Below are positions 21,278-32,730 of a stretch of 64,000 nt of DNA, piece by piece. The DNA lies in assembly GCA_035529455.1 (NCBI GenBank), contig DATKWQ010000040.1:34071-98070 (forward strand), written 5' to 3'. A model generated the notes under the pieces. It was given only the letters and a program-made list of their open reading frames with translations. It made no database searches and was not told the origin of the DNA. How positions within the stretch are numbered: position 1 is the first letter of the stretch; each line of letters starts with the position of its first letter. Origin of the DNA: Thermoplasmata archaeon (GTDB lineage: Archaea; Thermoplasmatota; Thermoplasmata; UBA10834). The position numbers and the translations under genes are program-made.

Positions 21278-21353
21278 TGGTGCGGCCGCCGGGATTTGAA
21301 CCCGAGTTCTGAGCTTGGCAAGCTCAAGTGATAACCAGCTACACTACAGCCGC
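21278..21353 (-). tRNA. tRNA-Gly (anticodon GCC), CCA encoded
   Basis: Minus-strand sequence GCGGCUGUAGUGUAGCUGGUUAUCACUUGAGCUUGCCAAGCUCAGAACUCGGGUUCAAAUCCCGGCGGCCGCACCA. 7-bp acceptor stem; anticodon stem UGAGC/GCUCA with loop UUGCCAA; T-arm UCGGG-UUCAAAU-CCCGG. 76 nt. Confidence 0.85.
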
Positions 21354-23520: not shown

Positions 23521-23702
23521 AGGAGATGTGAGAACCTGCCTGGTAGAAGAATATTGAGGTGTATTGGCGTCGCGTTCAGTCCGCCGTCGTCGCTGGCCAG
23601 CATAGGGCGGCCAGCCAGACGAGTACCAAAGGCTTAAAAAGAGCAGAGCTTATTTACCTGGTGGACAGCGTTCCGATAGCTCCAGGGATGGAGGATTGTT
23701 TG

Positions 23703-24245
23703 ATGAACGATGACGATCTGATGAAAGTCAAAGTGTGCTTCATTGGCGATGCTGGTGTGGGCAAGACCAGCCTTATAAAGAGGTTTGTTCTCGATGTCTT
23801 TGATGACCGCTACATCGCAACGATAGGGACGAAAGTCACCAAGAAGATCGTCGAAGTTGACGATGGTGGAAATGAGGTCAGAGTGATGATGCTCGTCTGG
23901 GACATCATGGGCCAGAAGGGTTTCCGCGAGCTGCTGCGCGAGGCGTACTTCTTCGGCGCGCATGGCGCCATTGCCGTCTGCGACTTGACGAACAAGGAGA
24001 CGCTCGAGGAACTCAGATACTGGATCAAAGCCCTGACGGACGTTGCCGGTGACGTGCCAATAGTCTTTGCTGGGAACAAGGCGGATCTTCAGAACGAGTC
24101 TGTCGTCAAGGAGGCAGACCTCAAGGACCTCGCTGACAAGTACGGTGCGGAGGCCTTCTTGACCAGCGCCAAAACCGGCCAGAACGTCGAGGATGTTTTC
24201 AAGGCACTCGGAGCAGCTATGGCGGCCAAATTGAACTCGCAGTAG
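23703..24245 (+). CDS. Ras/Rab-like small GTPase
   Basis: 180 aa from the ATG preceded by GGAGG at 8 nt; an alternative ATG is at 23688. All five G-boxes are present: G1 GDAGVGKTS, G2 Thr in YIATIGT, G3 WDIMGQ, G4 GNKADL, G5 TSAK. Confidence 0.85.
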   Translation: MNDDDLMKVKVCFIGDAGVGKTSLIKRFVLDVFDDRYIATIGTKVTKKIVEVDDGGNEVRVMMLVWDIMGQKGFRELLREAYFFGAHGAIAVCDLTNKETLEELRYWIKALTDVAGDVPIVFAGNKADLQNESVVKEADLKDLADKYGAEAFLTSAKTGQNVEDVFKALGAAMAAKLNSQ

Positions 24246-24353
24246 ACCGCTAGCCAGTACCCGTTCCCAAAGTTGATAACAAGCTGAGAACGCTTATAAC
24301 CCCAGCGGGGGCTATAAAAACATACGTTCTGCGCCATCGAAGGGCTTGCTCAC

Positions 24354-27300
24354 ATGAAAGAGGGACGGAAGGCGACTGAAGGCATATGCGCTCGCAACAG
24401 GGCGAGGACTATAGCGGGGGCGCTGGTGCTGATTCTCGCTGCGTCCCTGTTCTCCACGCAATACGGGATTACGAGCGAATCGTTGGCCGAGTCCATCCCA
24501 TCGCACGAACGACTGTTCCGCCTACACGAGGGAGACGCATCAGTCGTTTCGGACTACGATTGGCTGAATTCGTCCGCTGTCTACGACAACCCGACTCTGG
24601 ACTATGACGACGACGGTTATCTGGGAATCAGCATCAGGAAGAACCTGCCGTCCCAGAGATGGAGGCACTTCTGGGTCCTCTATCCAGGAGTGAACACGGA
24701 TATTCAGATTCAAGGCGACCTATCTGCACACATATGGGCGGCGTCCCAGGGAAATGAATCGGGGTCACAGATGACCATCATCTATTCTGACATGGCCCCA
24801 GCTGACTGGTACACTCCCAGCGCCTGGACTGAAATAGCACAATCCACCGTGCCCCTTGTCGGCCCTGACTACTCGATCTTCAAGCCATATGATCTGGTCG
24901 CGTCTGGCGTGGACTATGTGCTTCCCGTGGGGCATCACTTGGTTATTACGATTGCCAGGGGCGACTCGATAAACGATAGGCTTCTCGTCCTCTACGACGA
25001 TGATGACTTTGACTCCTACATACTCATGGACACTCCGACTTTCATATCTGTGGACGATGTGACGACGACCGACTCGCTCGGCGTTGAACAGTCCGTCTTT
25101 TCGGATGCTGACGAGGTCACCGTCTTGGCAAACGTCTCGAACCCGTTCGGGACCTACGAGATGCTCGATGCCGAGGTCGAGGTCGAGTATTCCAGCAACG
25201 GCACACCCGTCCTCGCGTCCACACCGATGCCAGTCCTTCGGGAGGACACTTCTTCGAATCCGTCCTGGAAGGTTTTCACGCTGGCAATCGGCCCTCTGCC
25301 GACCGGATCCCTCGTCATTACCGTCTACGCGGTTGACCCACAAGGCTCTCCCTCATGGATGAACGTCACAGTGACGGTCATTTCCGTGGACCACTTCGGA
25401 ATAGTCGTTCCGGACACGGTGACAATTATGGAGCCGTTCACGATGACGGTCACCGCCCTTGATGAGGCGGACGAAATCGTGACGGCTTGGTTGGGCACAG
25501 TCCAGCTTGATGCTTTCCTATCGGACCGGATTACGCCCGCGACAAGCGTGCTCGGCGTGGGCTCAATCCTCATTGCGGGCGTCGATCTCGGGCAGAAGAC
25601 GATCCTCGGTCAGACGTGCGACTACTCCGAGGAGACGATAGTCATAAGAGCCACCTCTGGGTCGCACCAGGGTTTCAGCCCCGAGATAGACATAAGAAGC
25701 GGCGCGGTTGTGAACGTGTCTCTGTCGCCTGAAGGGCCTTTAACCGTCTCAGCTGGCGCGGTCATCGAGTTCGATGCCGAAGGGACCGATTCGTTGGGAA
25801 TGCTCAACACGACTTGGTCTCCAGTCTGGACGCTGACGGGGTCGTTGGGCACCCTGGCGGAAGATGGCCTCAGCGCGACACTGAACACGATCTATGCGGG
25901 GAACGGATACGTGAACTGCACCAACCCCCTCACTAGCGCTTCGCAGAGCATTGCGGTCACGGTCGACCCGCTAGCTCTGACTTCCATCGTGCTGTCGCCG
26001 AACGGTTCCATCACCCTCAAAGAGAGGGAGTCCGTGGCGATATCAGCTACCGGCTATGATCTATACGGTAATGTACTCACCATCGGCAGTGCGATGTGGA
26101 GCACGACTACGACCGGCTCGATTGTCGGCACAGGGTCGTCAGCGACGTTCACCGCGGGTTACATACCTGAGACCGGCGTCGTGGAAATCACCGTTGGCAG
26201 CGTGAAGGCTTCGCTCGAGGTCGTCGTAGAAGAAGCACAGGACGGGCCATGGCTGACACCCATACCGACGCAGCTCGCCGCGGAGGACAGCAGCTGGCTC
26301 CTCAGCCTAGCACCTTACTGGCATTATGCAAATGGCACAGCGTCTCTCAGATGGCACGCCGAGAACGTGAACACGTCTCTGTACATGGTCCTCCATGACT
26401 CTGCGTCAGAAGCATACGTCAGCTTCCTGACACAGCCAGACAAGTTCGGTACGGATACATTCCGTCTGTGGGTGAGAGACGCGAACGGTTTCTCGACCTA
26501 CCAGGATATCGATGTGGTGATCCAGGCCATTCCCGATCCCCCTGTCTTCGTCAACTCACCTCCGACCGAGCTATATGTCAAGTTCGACACGCCCTACTCG
26601 TTCGATTACACATACTACATCAAGGACGTGGACACCCCGAAATCCAGCCTGCAGATGTTCTCGTCTCTTCCGAACAACGTCTACTTCAACCATGTCATTG
26701 GGACATTCATCTTCGGGGAACGCGACGGGAGGAACGCTTACTTCGAGATAATCACCATCACCGTAACGGACACCAAGGGCTTCGATGATCTGAAGGTAGT
26801 TGTTCGTGTCACAGAAGACACCCCACCCTCTTTGAGCGAGGAATTGCCAGATGTCGAACTCGACGAGGGTGAGACGGATCATTTCGCATTCGATCTGGAC
26901 GATTACTTCTTCGACATCGACAACGATTACCTCGTGTATACCTACGGGTTCGACAACATCGACATCTTCATCGATTCGATTTCGCACGAGGTCTACATGT
27001 CGGCGACGACTGAATGGTCCGGGACGATGGAGAACACATTCACCGCTGTCGACCCGATCGGTGCCCTGAAGACAGACACTATATTGGTGACGGTCTTCGC
27101 CGTGAACGACGCGCCGTCCTTCAGGAATCCAGGCACGATACACGTACGGTACGACTATGCGTACTATTTGACAGCCGCGATGTACGTTTCAGATCCCGAC
27201 CATTCGATTGACGAGCTTAAATTCTCTTTCAACACGCCCTACATCGACAACGAACCAGGCAGGCTGGTCCTCCTGTTCCCCGCTAGTCTATTGGGAGGGC

Positions 27301-28541
27301 CTTTCACCGATCCCTACATCGTGCCCGTCGTCGTCAACGTCAGCGACCCCGAGGGTGCCAGTGGCATCGCAATGTTCGATGTTGTGGTAAGTGACAACTT
27401 CCCACCGGAAGTGGTCGACCCAGTCCCGTACTACGATTTGGTCTCTTTCCTTGAGGACGAGTATCTGGACGGTGCCATCTATCTCGATGTCTTGTTTCAA
27501 GACACAGACGATGGCGCGGCCGCGTTGAACTACACAGTCAGCGGAAACAGCAACGTGCGAGTCGCGATCAGTGCGGATTCCCGCGTGAACCTGACAGCTG
27601 CCACAAACTGGTCGGGAACAGAGGTTCTCGAGTTCAGGGCGGTCGACCCACATGGTGCGTGGTGTTCATGGCGAGTGACTGTCACCGTGGTGCCTGTTAA
27701 CGACGCTCCCGTTGTCTTGCCGATTCCCAATTTCGTGATCCGGAGCGACGGCACGAGCACCCACTTCGATATATCGGATTACTTCATCGACAGCGAGACG
27801 CTTTTCGAGGGATTGTCGATACTCGTGATACCCACGCCTGAGGTCATCGTCGTTGGCAAGTACCTCTACGTGGACTTCCCTGACGGTACATCGGAAATCA
27901 CGATAACTATCCAGGCGATCGACTCCGATGGTGCCGAGTCGAACGAGGTTACCTTCTCCGTGAGCATCCTCAAGACTTGGGCCGACACGATAGGCTATCC
28001 GTACACGTTCCTTATCGTGCTCATGGCAGCTGGGATAGGGGGCTACTTCCTCGCGAGGAGGATGCCGCGGCCTTTCGGGCTCGATGACCTCTTCCTCATA
28101 CACAATGATGGACGACTGATATCTCATGTCACCAGAGTGGAAAGCATGACTATGGACAAGGACGTCGTTAGCGCCATGTTCACGGCGGTCCAGGAGTTCG
28201 TCAGAGACTCCTTCCAGGCGGGTGAGGTCGGCCTCAAGAAACTGGAGATTGGCGACAAGAACGTGATGATAAGGAAGGGGAAGTCGGTCTATCTCGCGCT
28301 GATATACTCTGGATGGCCTCCACAGAGCACATTCGACACGCTGGACATGCTGCTCAGCGATGCTGAGGAGCGCTTCCACGGTAAGATAGAGCGCTGGAAC
28401 GGCAAGAGGAATTCCTTGCCTGGTATAGATGAGATGCTGCAGTCGTACATGGCAGAGGGTTACAAGCCTGGCGCATGGCAGCCCGAAGAGGAAGGCATCG
28501 GGGAAGAAGAGTGGGTCGACATCATCAGCAAGGAGAACTAG
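24354..28541 (+). CDS. Giant single-pass surface protein: signal/TM, about 1200-aa extracellular region with Ig/cadherin-like repeats (VNDAPxF motifs), a TM helix, and a cytoplasmic Roadblock/LC7 (MglB-like) domain
   Basis: 1395 aa. N-terminal hydrophobic segment TIAGALVLILAASLF. FAVNDAPSF and VPVNDAPVV cadherin-like signatures. TM IGYPYTFLIVLMAAGIGGYFLARRM. The C-terminal roughly 150 aa show a beta-beta-alpha-beta-beta-alpha pattern (LFLIHNDGRLISHV / DKDVVSAMFTAVQEFVRDSF / KLEIGDKNVMIRKGKSVYLALIYSG / TFDTLDMLLSDAEERF) that aligns by eye with the Roadblock/LC7 topology. The domain assignment is inference from sequence pattern. Confidence 0.65.
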   Translation: MKEGRKATEGICARNRARTIAGALVLILAASLFSTQYGITSESLAESIPSHERLFRLHEGDASVVSDYDWLNSSAVYDNPTLDYDDDGYLGISIRKNLPSQRWRHFWVLYPGVNTDIQIQGDLSAHIWAASQGNESGSQMTIIYSDMAPADWYTPSAWTEIAQSTVPLVGPDYSIFKPYDLVASGVDYVLPVGHHLVITIARGDSINDRLLVLYDDDDFDSYILMDTPTFISVDDVTTTDSLGVEQSVFSDADEVTVLANVSNPFGTYEMLDAEVEVEYSSNGTPVLASTPMPVLREDTSSNPSWKVFTLAIGPLPTGSLVITVYAVDPQGSPSWMNVTVTVISVDHFGIVVPDTVTIMEPFTMTVTALDEADEIVTAWLGTVQLDAFLSDRITPATSVLGVGSILIAGVDLGQKTILGQTCDYSEETIVIRATSGSHQGFSPEIDIRSGAVVNVSLSPEGPLTVSAGAVIEFDAEGTDSLGMLNTTWSPVWTLTGSLGTLAEDGLSATLNTIYAGNGYVNCTNPLTSASQSIAVTVDPLALTSIVLSPNGSITLKERESVAISATGYDLYGNVLTIGSAMWSTTTTGSIVGTGSSATFTAGYIPETGVVEITVGSVKASLEVVVEEAQDGPWLTPIPTQLAAEDSSWLLSLAPYWHYANGTASLRWHAENVNTSLYMVLHDSASEAYVSFLTQPDKFGTDTFRLWVRDANGFSTYQDIDVVIQAIPDPPVFVNSPPTELYVKFDTPYSFDYTYYIKDVDTPKSSLQMFSSLPNNVYFNHVIGTFIFGERDGRNAYFEIITITVTDTKGFDDLKVVVRVTEDTPPSLSEELPDVELDEGETDHFAFDLDDYFFDIDNDYLVYTYGFDNIDIFIDSISHEVYMSATTEWSGTMENTFTAVDPIGALKTDTILVTVFAVNDAPSFRNPGTIHVRYDYAYYLTAAMYVSDPDHSIDELKFSFNTPYIDNEPGRLVLLFPASLLGGPFTDPYIVPVVVNVSDPEGASGIAMFDVVVSDNFPPEVVDPVPYYDLVSFLEDEYLDGAIYLDVLFQDTDDGAAALNYTVSGNSNVRVAISADSRVNLTAATNWSGTEVLEFRAVDPHGAWCSWRVTVTVVPVNDAPVVLPIPNFVIRSDGTSTHFDISDYFIDSETLFEGLSILVIPTPEVIVVGKYLYVDFPDGTSEITITIQAIDSDGAESNEVTFSVSILKTWADTIGYPYTFLIVLMAAGIGGYFLARRMPRPFGLDDLFLIHNDGRLISHVTRVESMTMDKDVVSAMFTAVQEFVRDSFQAGEVGLKKLEIGDKNVMIRKGKSVYLALIYSGWPPQSTFDTLDMLLSDAEERFHGKIERWNGKRNSLPGIDEMLQSYMAEGYKPGAWQPEEEGIGEEEWVDIISKEN

Positions 28542-30241: not shown

Positions 30242-30429
30242 CAGACCTGGATGCGTTCGTTAGGATTTAAGCTTATAATAACGGTGTGACCGGTCCAAGA
30301 ATACTGGCAGTGGCGACTCGAACGCGCCGAACATGGTAGTACATGGGGGGGTTCGCTTGCCCGGATACATCTCTATTAAGATTCTCACAAAGGCTTATAC
30401 CCTCGACCTCTAATTCCATTGACCCAGAC

Positions 30430-32730
30430 ATGTCTAGTTCAGGCAACCAGCCTGTCAAAGTCACTCTCAGGCGCGATCTGGGCCTTTTCGATGTGACTAT
30501 GATCGGTGTAGGAGCGATGATAGGCACGAGCATCTTCGTGCTCATAGGCGTGACCATCGACGAAGTCGGTCCTGCCATCCTGGCGGTGTTCGCGCTGAAC
30601 GCCATCGTCACGATATTCACAGCGGGCGTATATGCAGAGTTGGGCTCGACTTTCCCCGAAGCTGGAGGTGGTTACCTCTGGGCCAAGAAGGCGCTCAAGC
30701 ATCCAGGCGCGTTCCTCAGCGGTTGGATGTCCTGGTTCGGGCACACTGTTGCCTGCAGCTACTACGGGCTCGGTTTCGGATACGCGATGGTCGCGTTCTC
30801 AAACGCGTTTGAAATCGACATGTTCGGTCTCTCCGATGATATGATCGTAAAGGTCTTCGCCGTCATCGTGATATCGTTCTTCGTCTTCGTGAACTACTCT
30901 GGCGTCGGGGCGACCGGCAAGGCGGGAGACCTGATAACAATCATCCAGATATTGATCATCTCATTCTTCGTGGCGTTCATGGTCATCTACGCCTTCGACA
31001 TGAAAGGCATCCACATCATGGACAACTTCGACCCGTTGTTCCCGGAGGGCACGAACGCAGGCAAGATACTGATGATGATGGGATTCACCTTCATAGCGTT
31101 CGAGGGTTACGAGATAATCGTGCAGTGTGGAGAGGAGATAAAGGACCCGAAGAAGAACATCCCAAGAGCCATATTCATCTCAGTGCTTGTGGTGACGGCC
31201 ATGTACCTCAGCGTAGCTTTCGCATGCCTGGCTAATCCTGATGTTAGCTGGATGTGGATAGGCTCCGAAGGCGAGAATGCTGTCATCTCATCGGCCCAGA
31301 TGGTCATTCCGACTGTGGGAGCGCCGCTGATAATCTTGGGATGCCTGTTGTCTGCCATGGCTGCATTGAACGCGACCGTGTTCTCATCCTCGAGAGTCAG
31401 TTTCGCAATGGGACGCGACCGCACACTGCCACGGATCTTCGGTTCGATTCACAAGACGAGGAAGGTACCGCACTATGCGATCCTGATAACCGCTTCGATA
31501 ATGCTGTTCATGGCGTTGTTCTTTCCCCTGGATACGATCGTGGCCTCAACATCGATAATGTTCCTCCTGCTCTTCTCAGTGGCGAATATCGCCTCCATTA
31601 GGCTGCGCCGCAGACTCACCCAGATCGACATAGGCTTCAAGACCCCGCTGTTTCCGCTCTTCCCCGTCGTGGGTATAGTGTCGACTATAGGCATTGCGGT
31701 CTACCTGTGGTGGTTGATACCTGAGGCATGGTATATCGCATCTGTCTGGATAGCCGCTGGTCTTGCGATCTCGATCTTCGCCAAGCCCGAGGAGGAGTTC
31801 ATCTCGATATCTGAGTCTAAGAGAGTCCGGCAACAGCCGTTGCCGAAGGAGCAGGTCGAGAGATACAGGGTGTTCCTGGCATTGGAGAATATCGGCGACC
31901 TCCGTCTGCTGACATTCGCCGGTATTCTCGCCAGGTACTTCAAGGGCGAACTGACCGTCAATAAGATCGTCGAGGTTCCGAGGGCGATGCCCTTGGAGGT
32001 AATCAGCAAGGACTACGTCCAGGAGATGGCGGAGGGTCTTCAGAAAGCCATCAAGGTCACGCCATCAACGGTCAACGTGCGGCCTGCGGTATCGGTCTCC
32101 TACGACGTCGCAGGAGCGATACTGGATCAGACGCGGCATGAGGCGGCAAACCTGCTCGTGCTCGGTTGGAAGGGTACCAGAAGGCGTGGCCGTACGATCC
32201 TCGGAAGGAACCTCGATGTAATGGTCAGGCGAGCATCCTGCGACATAGCTATCATCAAGACGAAGAGAATGAGCAAGAATCCAGAGAGGATACTCCTCGT
32301 ATCCGGCAAGTTCTTCGAGACCAGGAAGGCCCTCCTCCTCACACTGCCGATAGCGAAGGAGTACAACGCTGGGATAGAGATACTAGCCATCGTGACTGAT
32401 GACAAGCAACTCGAGCTGGTCAAGGGCAATGCGAGCCGCCTGAAGAAGATATGCGACCGTGTGCACGTCCCCGCGGAGATAAAGCTTGTACGGTCCAAGT
32501 CCGTGGTGAACTCCGTCATGGAACATGCCCAGGGCGTCGACTTACTGGTCATGGGTGCTGGTCCACAGAGAGCGCTCGAGAGGACGTTGTTCGGCGCCGT
32601 CTACGACAGGATAATCAGGACTGTCGATGTGCCCATGTTGGTGCTGAGGACTTCAAAGACCGAGAAGTCGTCTTCCACACCGTCGCTTCCCGCGGTGAAG
32701 AGCCCATCTCAGTCAAGCAAGCCTAAGTGA
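30430..32730 (+). CDS. APC-family amino acid permease fused to two C-terminal universal stress protein (UspA) domains
   Basis: ORF 30343..32730, with the likely start MSSSGNQPVKV at 30430. About 12 TM segments with the GxG-rich helix 1 (MIGVGAMIGTSIFVLIG). C-terminal tandem alpha/beta USP-like modules (LLVLGWKG..., RILLVSGKF...LLVMGA). Confidence 0.75.
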   Translation: MSSSGNQPVKVTLRRDLGLFDVTMIGVGAMIGTSIFVLIGVTIDEVGPAILAVFALNAIVTIFTAGVYAELGSTFPEAGGGYLWAKKALKHPGAFLSGWMSWFGHTVACSYYGLGFGYAMVAFSNAFEIDMFGLSDDMIVKVFAVIVISFFVFVNYSGVGATGKAGDLITIIQILIISFFVAFMVIYAFDMKGIHIMDNFDPLFPEGTNAGKILMMMGFTFIAFEGYEIIVQCGEEIKDPKKNIPRAIFISVLVVTAMYLSVAFACLANPDVSWMWIGSEGENAVISSAQMVIPTVGAPLIILGCLLSAMAALNATVFSSSRVSFAMGRDRTLPRIFGSIHKTRKVPHYAILITASIMLFMALFFPLDTIVASTSIMFLLLFSVANIASIRLRRRLTQIDIGFKTPLFPLFPVVGIVSTIGIAVYLWWLIPEAWYIASVWIAAGLAISIFAKPEEEFISISESKRVRQQPLPKEQVERYRVFLALENIGDLRLLTFAGILARYFKGELTVNKIVEVPRAMPLEVISKDYVQEMAEGLQKAIKVTPSTVNVRPAVSVSYDVAGAILDQTRHEAANLLVLGWKGTRRRGRTILGRNLDVMVRRASCDIAIIKTKRMSKNPERILLVSGKFFETRKALLLTLPIAKEYNAGIEILAIVTDDKQLELVKGNASRLKKICDRVHVPAEIKLVRSKSVVNSVMEHAQGVDLLVMGAGPQRALERTLFGAVYDRIIRTVDVPMLVLRTSKTEKSSSTPSLPAVKSPSQSSKPK

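Follow-up and report, generated by a model that had tools for sequence, protein, structure and literature searches.

Does the giant surface protein of a Thermoplasmata archaeon control the small GTPase encoded next to it? The window analysed here, a stretch of 64,000 nucleotides of contig DATKWQ010000040.1, contains two neighbouring genes which the initial annotation had combined into a candidate transmembrane receptor-to-GTPase module. In eukaryotes, membrane traffic and nutrient signalling depend centrally on Roadblock and longin platforms paired with small GTPases, and the prokaryotic roots of these platforms are debated mainly on Asgard data. Our analysis suggests that the two genes probably form a membrane-tethered GTPase module, in which the tail of the surface protein is a longin platform binding or regulating the adjacent GTPase. 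The locus is composed of the following elements:

23688..24245, + strand: Rab/Rup-like small GTPase gene, 185 aa from ATG 23688 (ORF, Pfam Ras match and motifs)
24251..24322, + strand: conserved non-coding element (alignment of 32 orthologous spacers)
24354..28541, + strand: gene for a predicted type-I membrane surface protein of 1395 aa (ORF; identical gene call on ENA contig k141_680050)

The GTPase reading frame ends at 24245 and offers three candidate starts, ATG 23688, TTG 23700 (the start of the public gene call) and ATG 23703. The gene had initially been placed from 23686; the gene itself stands, and its first coordinate moves by 2 nt. All five G-boxes named for it are present (GDAGVGKTS, TIGT, WDIMGQ, NKAD, SAK), the catalytic Gln included, and a match to Pfam Ras (PF00071; E=1.8e-37, 128.9 bits, cut-off 21.6) bears out a bona fide small GTPase. 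NCBIfam TIGR00231 small_GTP is matched as well, and the best PDB sequence match is Rab1 (E=7e-29). Rup GTPases are defined as single-domain Ras-like GTPases of less than 240 aa with eukaryote-like G1-G5 including DxxGQ, and MglA by a conserved Asp missing from G3 and a gene coupled to mglB (PMC4316618). At the motif level, our protein has a single domain, less than 240 aa and eukaryote-like G1-G5 with DxxGQ; an MglA identity is ruled out by its G3, WDIMGQ, which holds the Asp. Judged by these motifs, the GTPase is Rup/Rab-like and not MglA-like, so that the analogy to MglA/MglB is structural only. With an HMM deduced from seven closely related Roadblock domains, which more divergent ones could escape, neither the window nor most of the related loci yielded a standalone Roadblock (Robl_LC7) gene. 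The GTPase ends in ...GAAMAAKLNSQ and lacks the C-terminal Cys or lipidation motif that Rab prenylation demands, so that it would need a protein partner for reaching the membrane.

Such a partner may be given by the second gene product, which is divided as follows:

24402..24458, + strand: N-terminal hydrophobic segment, aa 17-35, ARTIAGALVLILAASLFST (Kyte-Doolittle 19-residue window 1.70)
24474..26270, + strand: distal ectodomain, approximately aa 41-639 (no recognisable domain)
26271..27983, + strand: membrane-proximal Ig/cadherin-like repeat region, approximately aa 640-1210, boundaries approximate (Big_9, tandem-95, motifs)
27990..28064, + strand: single predicted TM helix, aa 1213-1237, IGYPYTFLIVLMAAGIGGYFLARRM (hydropathy 1.65)
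28074..28463, + strand: predicted longin-type (Roadblock/longin superfamily) juxtamembrane domain, aa 1241-1370 (predicted topology β1β2α1β3β4β5α2α3)
28464..28538, + strand: C-terminal extension bearing a conserved acidic-Trp motif, ...YKPGAWQPEEEGIGEEEWVDIISKEN (W, V, I and K never vary within the orthologous clade)

The first hydrophobic segment follows a basic N-terminus and is a predicted signal peptide or signal anchor. Together with the single TM helix, this confirms the layout of the 1395-aa protein given by the initial annotation. RRMPRP directly follows the TM helix, and by the positive-inside rule the tail is therefore cytoplasmic. The type-I topology with a cytoplasmic tail and probable Ig/cadherin-like repeats is likewise retained. 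Pfam Big_9 matches one domain at aa 1039-1111 (E=2.1e-5, 25.7 bits, barely above the cut-off of 23.6), and the NCBIfam tandem-95 repeat matches three stretches (E=4.4e-16) with 58.6 bits, below its cut-off of 90. Matches to Cadherin_4 and Cadherin_5 are not significant. Calling VNDAPxF signatures repeated was somewhat of an overstatement, as VNDAP occurs twice (aa 917 and 1115) beside one IPDPP (aa 726). The distal ectodomain has no Pfam, NCBIfam or PDB match, and the ectodomain as a whole has no PDB homologue in a sequence search; it is very acidic, with 165 D+E versus 42 K+R. Orthologues in Thermoplasmata MAGs comprise 1404-1490 aa, counted in stop-to-stop frames and hence slightly over-long. 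Median identity among orthologues amounts to 85% for the GTPase (range of its orthologues 80-96%), 68% for the tail and 45-53% for the ectodomain, whose distal part evolves fastest of the entire protein (median 45%).

What kind of domain is the tail? The initial annotation had aligned it with Roadblock/LC7 domains of the MglB type. Secondary structure prediction yields β β α β β β α α, in agreement with a confident AF2 model that was built on a diverse alignment (an alignment of close homologues gave only pLDDT 61). DSSP assigns E7-15, E20-25, H34-51, E61-64, E67-73, E77-84, H89-105, and H123-133 to this model. The model reveals a five-stranded antiparallel sheet between helices, and its closest structural neighbours lie within the Roadblock/longin superfamily, so the assignment to this superfamily holds at the fold level. 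The assignment to the Roadblock family itself does not: β1 begins seven residues past the TM helix, the N-terminal helix of Roadblock/LC7 proper (Pfam PF03259) is missing, and an extra C-terminal helix is present, which rules this family out. The order of elements matches the longin topology β-β-α-β-β-β-α-α instead, and structural alignments cover 117-131 residues with longins versus approximately 100 with Roadblocks. Thus, as far as the model can be trusted, the fold is longin-type. The C-terminal extension is modelled with low to moderate pLDDT.

Sequence comparison is compatible with a distant relationship of this kind. The tail gives nothing at E<=1 against PF03259 and no match in Pfam, NCBIfam, PDB or PADLOC; the reading as a defence system was dropped for lack of a PADLOC match. 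Among 36 members of the tail family, Robl_LC7 appears below threshold in six (best E=0.023) and Fuz_longin_1 in two, and none of the longin-type Pfam models (Longin, Fuz_longin_1, Sybindin, Sedlin_N, Clat_adaptor_s, SRX) is matched significantly. In hhalign, the tail and Roadblock profiles correspond in register over 98 columns (E=4.6e-5, probability 69%).

The tail is the founding domain of a large, unannotated family, which comprises about 4,164 clusters at 50% identity and whose loci were gathered with separate alignments, one for genomes and a motif-restricted one for metagenomes. Most members are composed of a signal peptide, a variable ectodomain, a TM helix and the tail; in 93 of the 176 domains of the family, a TM helix precedes the tail domain at a median distance of 3 residues. 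In eight members of 265-287 aa, a Pfam Robl_LC7 domain precedes the tail domain.

Are the genes for tail and GTPase found together beyond this locus? Orthologues of the gene pair occur in at least 37 Thermoplasmata genomes, so that the pair is not a chance arrangement. The pairing is thus conserved in related genomes, a point to which the initial annotation had attached its proposal; as independent evidence it does not count, since the entire block FolC-AsnS-like-GTPase-giant gene-DUF885-permease-NUDIX is syntenic in 37 loci and adjacency within this clade is therefore uninformative. The real support for a link between tail and GTPase comes from unrelated subfamilies. A Ras-like GTPase gene, searched with a home-made HMM, lies within 3 kb of a tail gene in 8 of 16 independent contexts, where contexts are single-linkage clusters at 60% identity and not phylogeny-based. 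The background density is two GTPase matches per 543 kb located more than 3 kb from tail genes, and non-orthologous loci reveal 18 matches in 317 kb of flanking sequence versus one in 270 kb of distal sequence. The linked GTPases share 38-54% identity with the GTPase of the window.

The arrangements differ widely. In locus L041, three tandem Ras-like GTPases follow a fusion of Roadblock and tail, two loci (L047 and L134) carry a three-gene row of a TM-tail protein, another protein with the tail domain and a GTPase, and in L111-L126 a gene for a PKD/Ig ectodomain, TM helix and tail precedes the GTPase. In L074, a surface protein of 2416 aa that carries both tail and DUF835 comes after the GTPase, while in L107 and L108 a tail-bearing STAND NTPase is divergent from a TPR-Ras GTPase. 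In the other 8 of the 16 contexts no GTPase was found nearby. These include the most abundant subfamily (51 loci, 16 with informative flanks), whose tail genes adjoin an Lhr helicase gene; the neighbours in the subfamilies lacking a GTPase are housekeeping or unassigned genes (Lhr helicase, PLD, ABC-2 transporter). In a single locus, L043, two-component genes lie beside the tail family.

Within the window, the two genes are separated by exactly 108 bp (24246-24353) on the same strand, as initially annotated. Most of this spacer is taken up by the conserved element, with the consensus GCCaGt..CC.TTccCA....TGATAACga..tgAgAA.gCTTATAA.CCCAGC...GgCTAT.AA and many positions conserved to at least 90% in the 32 orthologous spacers. 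An Rfam search of the conserved spacer gave no match. By its sequence, the element appears promoter-like (BRE/TATA), and a transcription start approximately 25 nt 3' of GCTTATAA would fit a promoter of the giant gene's own. Because of this promoter-like element between them, co-transcription of the two genes in an operon should not be assumed, and they may be under separate regulation.

To our knowledge, characterised Roadblock/longin domains always pair, and the β-sheet platform so formed is the docking site of a small GTPase, as in MglB-MglA, Mon1-Ccz1-Rab7, TRAPP-Rab1, Ragulator-Rag, and SRX-SRβ. Longin roles independent of GTPases also exist, e.g., in SNAREs and in the sigma and mu subunits of coats. 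In the module that we favour, the longin-type domain would fold about seven residues past the TM helix at its cytoplasmic end, might dimerise, and would bind the Rab-like GTPase, both receiving it at the membrane and regulating it, as GEF, GAP or nucleotide-state-specific anchor. As the domain sits almost directly at the membrane, the state of the platform could be coupled mechanically to the way in which the surface protein associates laterally through ligand, cell contact or lattice. That an outside signal gates the GTPase, as initially annotated, is pure conjecture; signalling could run outside-in or inside-out.

The strongest competitor holds that the tail works without any GTPase, as a juxtamembrane module for oligomerisation, anchoring or sorting, and that the GTPase of the window is a mere syntenic neighbour. 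It could, for instance, link a cytoplasmic scaffold to a lattice of S-layer or adhesin proteins, or sort cargo into extracellular vesicles in the manner of SNARE and adaptor longins. The synteny of the whole FolC to NUDIX block, the contexts without a GTPase, with the largest subfamily beside the Lhr helicase among them, and the promoter-like element separating the genes all speak for it. Against it stand the strong enrichment of GTPases beside tail genes of unrelated architectures and orientations, and the fusion of the tail to genuine Roadblock domains, set ahead of three tandem GTPases; we regard it as unlikely. A direction opposite to that initially proposed, in which the GTPase follows internal cues and binds the tail and so governs where the surface protein is placed, how it clusters or how it is turned over, in the style of polarity and adhesion control by MglA, draws on the same structural evidence as the membrane-tethered module. 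The repeat-rich, adhesin-like ectodomains, which are not typical ligand-binding sensor domains, and the fast evolution of the ectodomain compared to the conserved tail and GTPase fit it, as does the fact that MglA-MglB sets the assembly sites of adhesion and motility machines. Sequence does not distinguish the direction, however, and the neighbouring genes include no recognisable GTPase effector; we consider this reading unlikely. That the tail is instead a small-molecule or peptide sensor resembling a longin (a GAF-, PAS- or profilin-like α/β sandwich) seems most improbable; the core of a β-sheet plus helices is common to these folds, and the two-component genes of one locus would agree with it.

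Assuming the membrane-tethered module, how does it compare with known systems? The literature searched contains no description of a surface receptor with a Roadblock/longin tail encoded beside a GTPase, in agreement with the initial view that the architecture is not a described prokaryotic system. Eukaryotic longin platforms (Mon1-Ccz1/Rab7, TRAPP Bet5/Trs23/Rab1, FLCN/NPRL) and SRX-SRβ share only 5-15% sequence identity with the tail, which is matched by no Pfam longin model. These platforms are soluble hetero-oligomers recruited peripherally, whereas the tail domain stands in single copy behind the TM helix of a surface protein. In the SRX-SRβ pair the TM anchor resides on the GTPase, here on the longin-bearing protein. 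Compared to MglB/Roadblock-LC7 with MglA (bacteria, Euryarchaeota) and Ragulator LAMTOR with Rag, the tail lacks the Roadblock N-terminal helix and fails PF03259, and the GTPase has the G3 aspartate that MglA lacks. A 2014 survey found none of 121 Rup GTPases coupled to MglB (PMC4316618).

Asgard archaea encode Roadblock/longin proteins and Rab-like GTPases (PMC10933270), among them the Lokiarchaeal Roadblock-Longin protein (PDB 8yqg). By its named records, the tail family belongs to another lineage, the Thermoplasmatota; it is also a different sequence family, its HMM matching no PDB chain, and its domain is membrane-anchored behind giant ectodomains. In MK-D1, an Asgard strain in culture, operons were reported generally not to join GTPase genes to Roadblock or longin genes. 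The actinobacterial conservons (AGPS, CvnA-D) consist of four separate proteins in one operon, namely a histidine-kinase-like sensor (CvnA), a soluble Roadblock protein (CvnB), a DUF742 protein (CvnC) and an MglA-type GTPase (CvnD); no histidine kinase, Robl_LC7 or DUF742 gene was found in the neighbourhood of our locus.

Extending the argument from this locus to the family, we tentatively propose as a possibility that Thermoplasmatota possess a class of single-pass receptors or adhesins, in which interchangeable ectodomains (cadherin-like, PKD, LTD, SLH-like) sit on a shared juxtamembrane domain of longin type, by which Rab-like GTPases would be switched or anchored directly. This would amount to prokaryotic receptor-to-small-GTPase signalling, and the longin-Rab partnership, commonly taken for a mark of eukaryotes and Asgard, would be widespread in one more archaeal phylum. 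If the binding holds true, the locus would offer a simple, testable model of transmembrane control over small GTPases in which lipid anchors and adaptor complexes are dispensable, thousands of giant surface proteins now labelled "hypothetical" in abundant uncultured Thermoplasmata would gain a function, and longin-Rab pairs would be weaker as Asgard-specific eukaryotic signatures. What is new is a large unannotated family, longin-type by prediction, outside Asgard in a different archaeal phylum, whose domain is joined through a TM helix to surface proteins of many kinds, and whose genes are linked to those of Rab-like GTPases. All named records of the family are assigned to Thermoplasmata, Thermoplasmatota or an umbrella label (Methanobacteriota/Euryarchaeota).

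The window is part of ENA ERZ27256834 k141_680050, a metagenomic contig 114 kb long that comes from an uncultured archaeon of the Thermoplasmata. ORF analysis recovers both genes proposed in the initial annotation, a small GTPase and a giant surface protein of 1395 aa, on the same strand and with the expected spacing. Their features are as follows.

Small GTPase gene, single domain, + strand, ending at 24245; candidate starts ATG 23688, TTG 23700 and ATG 23703
Conserved non-coding element in the spacer between the genes, 24251-24322, roughly 70 nt, from an alignment of 32 orthologous loci
Gene of the giant protein (1395 aa), 24354-28541, + strand, exactly 108 bp 3' of the GTPase gene
Giant, aa 17-35: hydrophobic segment after a basic N-terminus
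Giant, aa 1213-1237: single TM helix, followed by RRMPRP
Giant, C-terminal 158 aa: cytoplasmic tail

The public gene call for the GTPase begins at TTG 23700. The protein matches Pfam Ras (E=1.8e-37) as well as TIGR00231, all five proposed G-box strings are found in it, and its closest solved structures by PDB sequence comparison are Rab1, Rab8 and Rab35 (from E=7e-29). Since both Asp and Gln are present in its G3 motif, WDIMGQ, its sequence places it with the Rup/Rab-like rather than the MglA-like GTPases in the scheme of PMC4316618. Inspection revealed no cysteine at the C-terminus. The GTPase is Rab-like with intact catalytic motifs and without a lipid anchor.

The giant is a type-I surface protein whose predicted longin-fold domain starts about 7 residues past the membrane. 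Its ectodomain is strongly acidic (165 D+E vs 42 K+R). A cadherin-like ectodomain with repeated VNDAPxF signatures is moderately supported: only two VNDAP motifs and one IPDPP are present, one Big_9 domain (Pfam) lies barely above cut-off, and three 'tandem-95' stretches (NCBIfam) all lie under it. The distal 600 aa match nothing in Pfam, NCBIfam or, by sequence, the PDB.

Searches of the same three databases by sequence gave no match for the tail either. The quality of AlphaFold2 models tracked alignment depth, with a pLDDT of 61 for close homologues only and of 83.7 (pTM 0.76) for A3, an alignment of 36 diverse tail-family sequences (24-66% identity). The A3 model has the topology β1β2α1β3β4β5α2α3, and Foldseek matches it at probability 1.00 to LAMTOR2, MglB, TRAPP and coat zeta/sigma. 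In fold comparison, 117-131 of its residues align to longins and about 100 to Roadblocks. It is without the N-terminal Roadblock helix and has an extra C-terminal helix, a pattern that matches the longin arrangement as defined in PMC10933270. At the sequence level, hhalign places 98 columns of the tail and Roadblock profiles in register (E=4.6e-5, probability 69%), and Robl_LC7 and Fuz_longin_1 are the most frequent sub-threshold Pfam matches among 36 tail-family members; this remote signal is weak, but consistent. Because fold searches, helix pattern and sequence signal concur, the Roadblock/LC7 domain recognized by eye in the initial annotation holds at the level of the superfamily, while Pfam Robl_LC7 membership and the MglB type do not: the modelled fold is very probably longin-type.

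A word-indexed search with the tail found close relatives only (59-78% identity), in which the tail is much more conserved than the ectodomain preceding it. When the tail profile was run with HMMER over all 1.84 billion cluster representatives, 4,164 proteins matched at E<=1e-3, of which 2,208 reached E<=1e-10; by these matches, the tail defines a large unannotated protein family. Named records belong to Thermoplasmata, Thermoplasmatota or the umbrella labels Methanobacteriota/Euryarchaeota. In the best 149 representatives, the domain usually ends a long protein (at most 60 aa from the C-terminus in 112 of 176 copies), and a hydrophobic helix immediately precedes 93 of the 176 copies (median gap, 3 residues). 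Soluble giants form another architecture class, in which two or three copies are spaced by about 500 aa. Such multi-copy proteins, soluble or very large, are P0023, P0027-P0033 and L039 2323-9576 (P, representative proteins; L, loci in other genomes or metagenomes); some also contain DUF5915, and none of their copies is preceded by a TM helix. DUF835 is an uncharacterised archaeal domain; the order TM-tail-DUF835 recurs in L074 3711-10958 and P0064, where DUF835 immediately follows the longin-type domain.

Orthologous Thermoplasmata loci account for 37 of the 39 loci from GTDB species representatives. The GTPase lies directly 5' of the giant on the same strand in all 32 with enough upstream DNA, but this conservation adds no independent support for the pairing, because the block of FolC, AsnS-like, GTPase, giant, DUF885, permease-Usp and NUDIX genes is syntenic as a whole. 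What these orthologues do reveal is a pattern of selection: compared with the window proteins, the GTPase has a median amino-acid identity of 85%, the tail of 68%, FolC of 57% and the two halves of the ectodomain of 53% and 45%. The tail-bearing frame is shortened in L009 (196 aa) and L035 (741 aa) vs about 1420 aa in other orthologues, likely by frameshift or assembly error.

Support independent of this synteny is provided by distant family members, in which links to GTPases and Roadblock domains recur. A bona fide Pfam Robl_LC7 domain stands N-terminal to the tail domain in eight proteins of 265-287 aa. At L041 (8001-10776), three Ras-like GTPase genes lie in tandem downstream of a soluble Roadblock-tail fusion, and their products are 52-54% identical to the window GTPase. 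V4R is the archaeal relative of TRAPPC3/Bet3; it is carried by one of two response regulators at L043 (4245-8798), where the fusion follows a histidine kinase, both regulators and a standalone Roadblock gene. L047 and L134 each hold a row of a short TM-tail protein, a second tail-domain protein and a GTPase. A metagenome scan limited to a motif missing from the window's clade yielded 79 further loci. In these, GTPases directly adjoin PKD/Ig-ectodomain-TM-tail proteins at L111-L126 and, at L074, a surface protein of 2416 aa (SLH-like/LTD/Ig) that carries both the tail and DUF835. At L108 (2032-4773, +) and L107 (1943-2980, -), a tail-bearing STAND NTPase (AAA_16, tail, TPR) is divergent from a TPR-Ras GTPase fusion, a predicted cytoplasmic version of the link.

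With tail domains clustered ad hoc at 60% identity, Pfam-annotated look-ups and a home-made GTPase HMM, a Ras-like GTPase occurs within 3 kb of the tail gene in 8 of 16 independent contexts, against a background of only 2 matches in 543 kb more than 3 kb from any tail gene. One of these two is likely spurious, caused by a frameshift in a giant gene; the short frame of L009 had put its neighbouring GTPase beyond 3 kb. In the remaining contexts, the neighbouring genes are housekeeping or unknown, and the most abundant subfamily (about 1390 aa), with no GTPase nearby, adjoins an Lhr helicase. The genomic association of the tail domain with such GTPases and Roadblock domains is family-wide, whatever the orientation. 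In several subfamilies (L041, L046, L047, L092, L127), the catalytic G3 glutamine of the tail-linked GTPase is replaced by Glu or His (DIMGE, DIAGH), a hint that hydrolysis may proceed differently there or that another protein may contribute the residue in trans.

Longin/Roadblock-GTPase pairs such as MglB-MglA, Mon1-Ccz1-Rab7, TRAPP-Rab1, Ragulator-Rag and SRX-SRβ serve as our model. By analogy, two tails would pair into a platform docking the GTPase at the membrane and acting as its GEF, GAP or state-specific anchor; as the domain sits almost against the bilayer, platform geometry would be expected to be coupled to the way in which ectodomains associate laterally. We consider it rather probable that the tail is a partner of the neighbouring GTPase. 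That an external signal gates the GTPase, as initially proposed, is a more doubtful proposition; the GTPase might instead govern placement of the adhesin in an MglA-like manner, and sequence cannot separate these two directions. The C-terminal peptide ...YKPGAWQPEEEGIGEEEWVDIISKEN (window 28464-28538, aa 1371-1395), with W, V, I and K invariant across the orthologous clade, may serve in docking; the corresponding end in other subfamilies is Y[KR]xGDW[KR].

The spacer is not neutral sequence. Its element has the consensus GCCaGt..CC.TTccCA....TGATAACga..tgAgAA.gCTTATAA.CCCAGC...GgCTAT.AA, in which conservation across the 32 loci reaches 90% or more at many positions, although the flanking ectodomain falls to about 45%. 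It includes TGATAAC, GAGAAnGCTTATAA and GCTATAAA, of which GAGAAnGCTTATAA looks like a BRE/TATA pair, judged from general knowledge of archaeal promoters. The element has no Rfam match, and the spacer shows no oligo-T run 3' of the GTPase stop. Being conserved and promoter-like, it is probably a promoter plus regulator site, and the giant gene is probably served by a conserved promoter or regulatory site of its own; these observations speak neither for nor against read-through from the GTPase gene.

A Roadblock/longin-fold regulator with a small GTPase is a known kind of system (MglA/MglB, conservons, eukaryotic platforms), to which Asgard Roadblock/longin proteins with Rab-like GTPases also belong. 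Of 121 Rup GTPases surveyed in 2014, none showed coupling to MglB (PMC4316618). In agreement with the initial annotation, the literature searched gave no description of such a prokaryotic architecture: neither the tail family, nor any giant surface protein whose TM helix is followed by a fused longin-type domain, nor a longin-GTPase linkage in Thermoplasmatota.

Two genes downstream of the giant, an amino-acid permease with C-terminal Usp domains (30343-32730, +) is syntenic at 61-91% identity. The sole Rfam gathering-level match in the 64-kb window is a tRNA gene (21281-21353, -).
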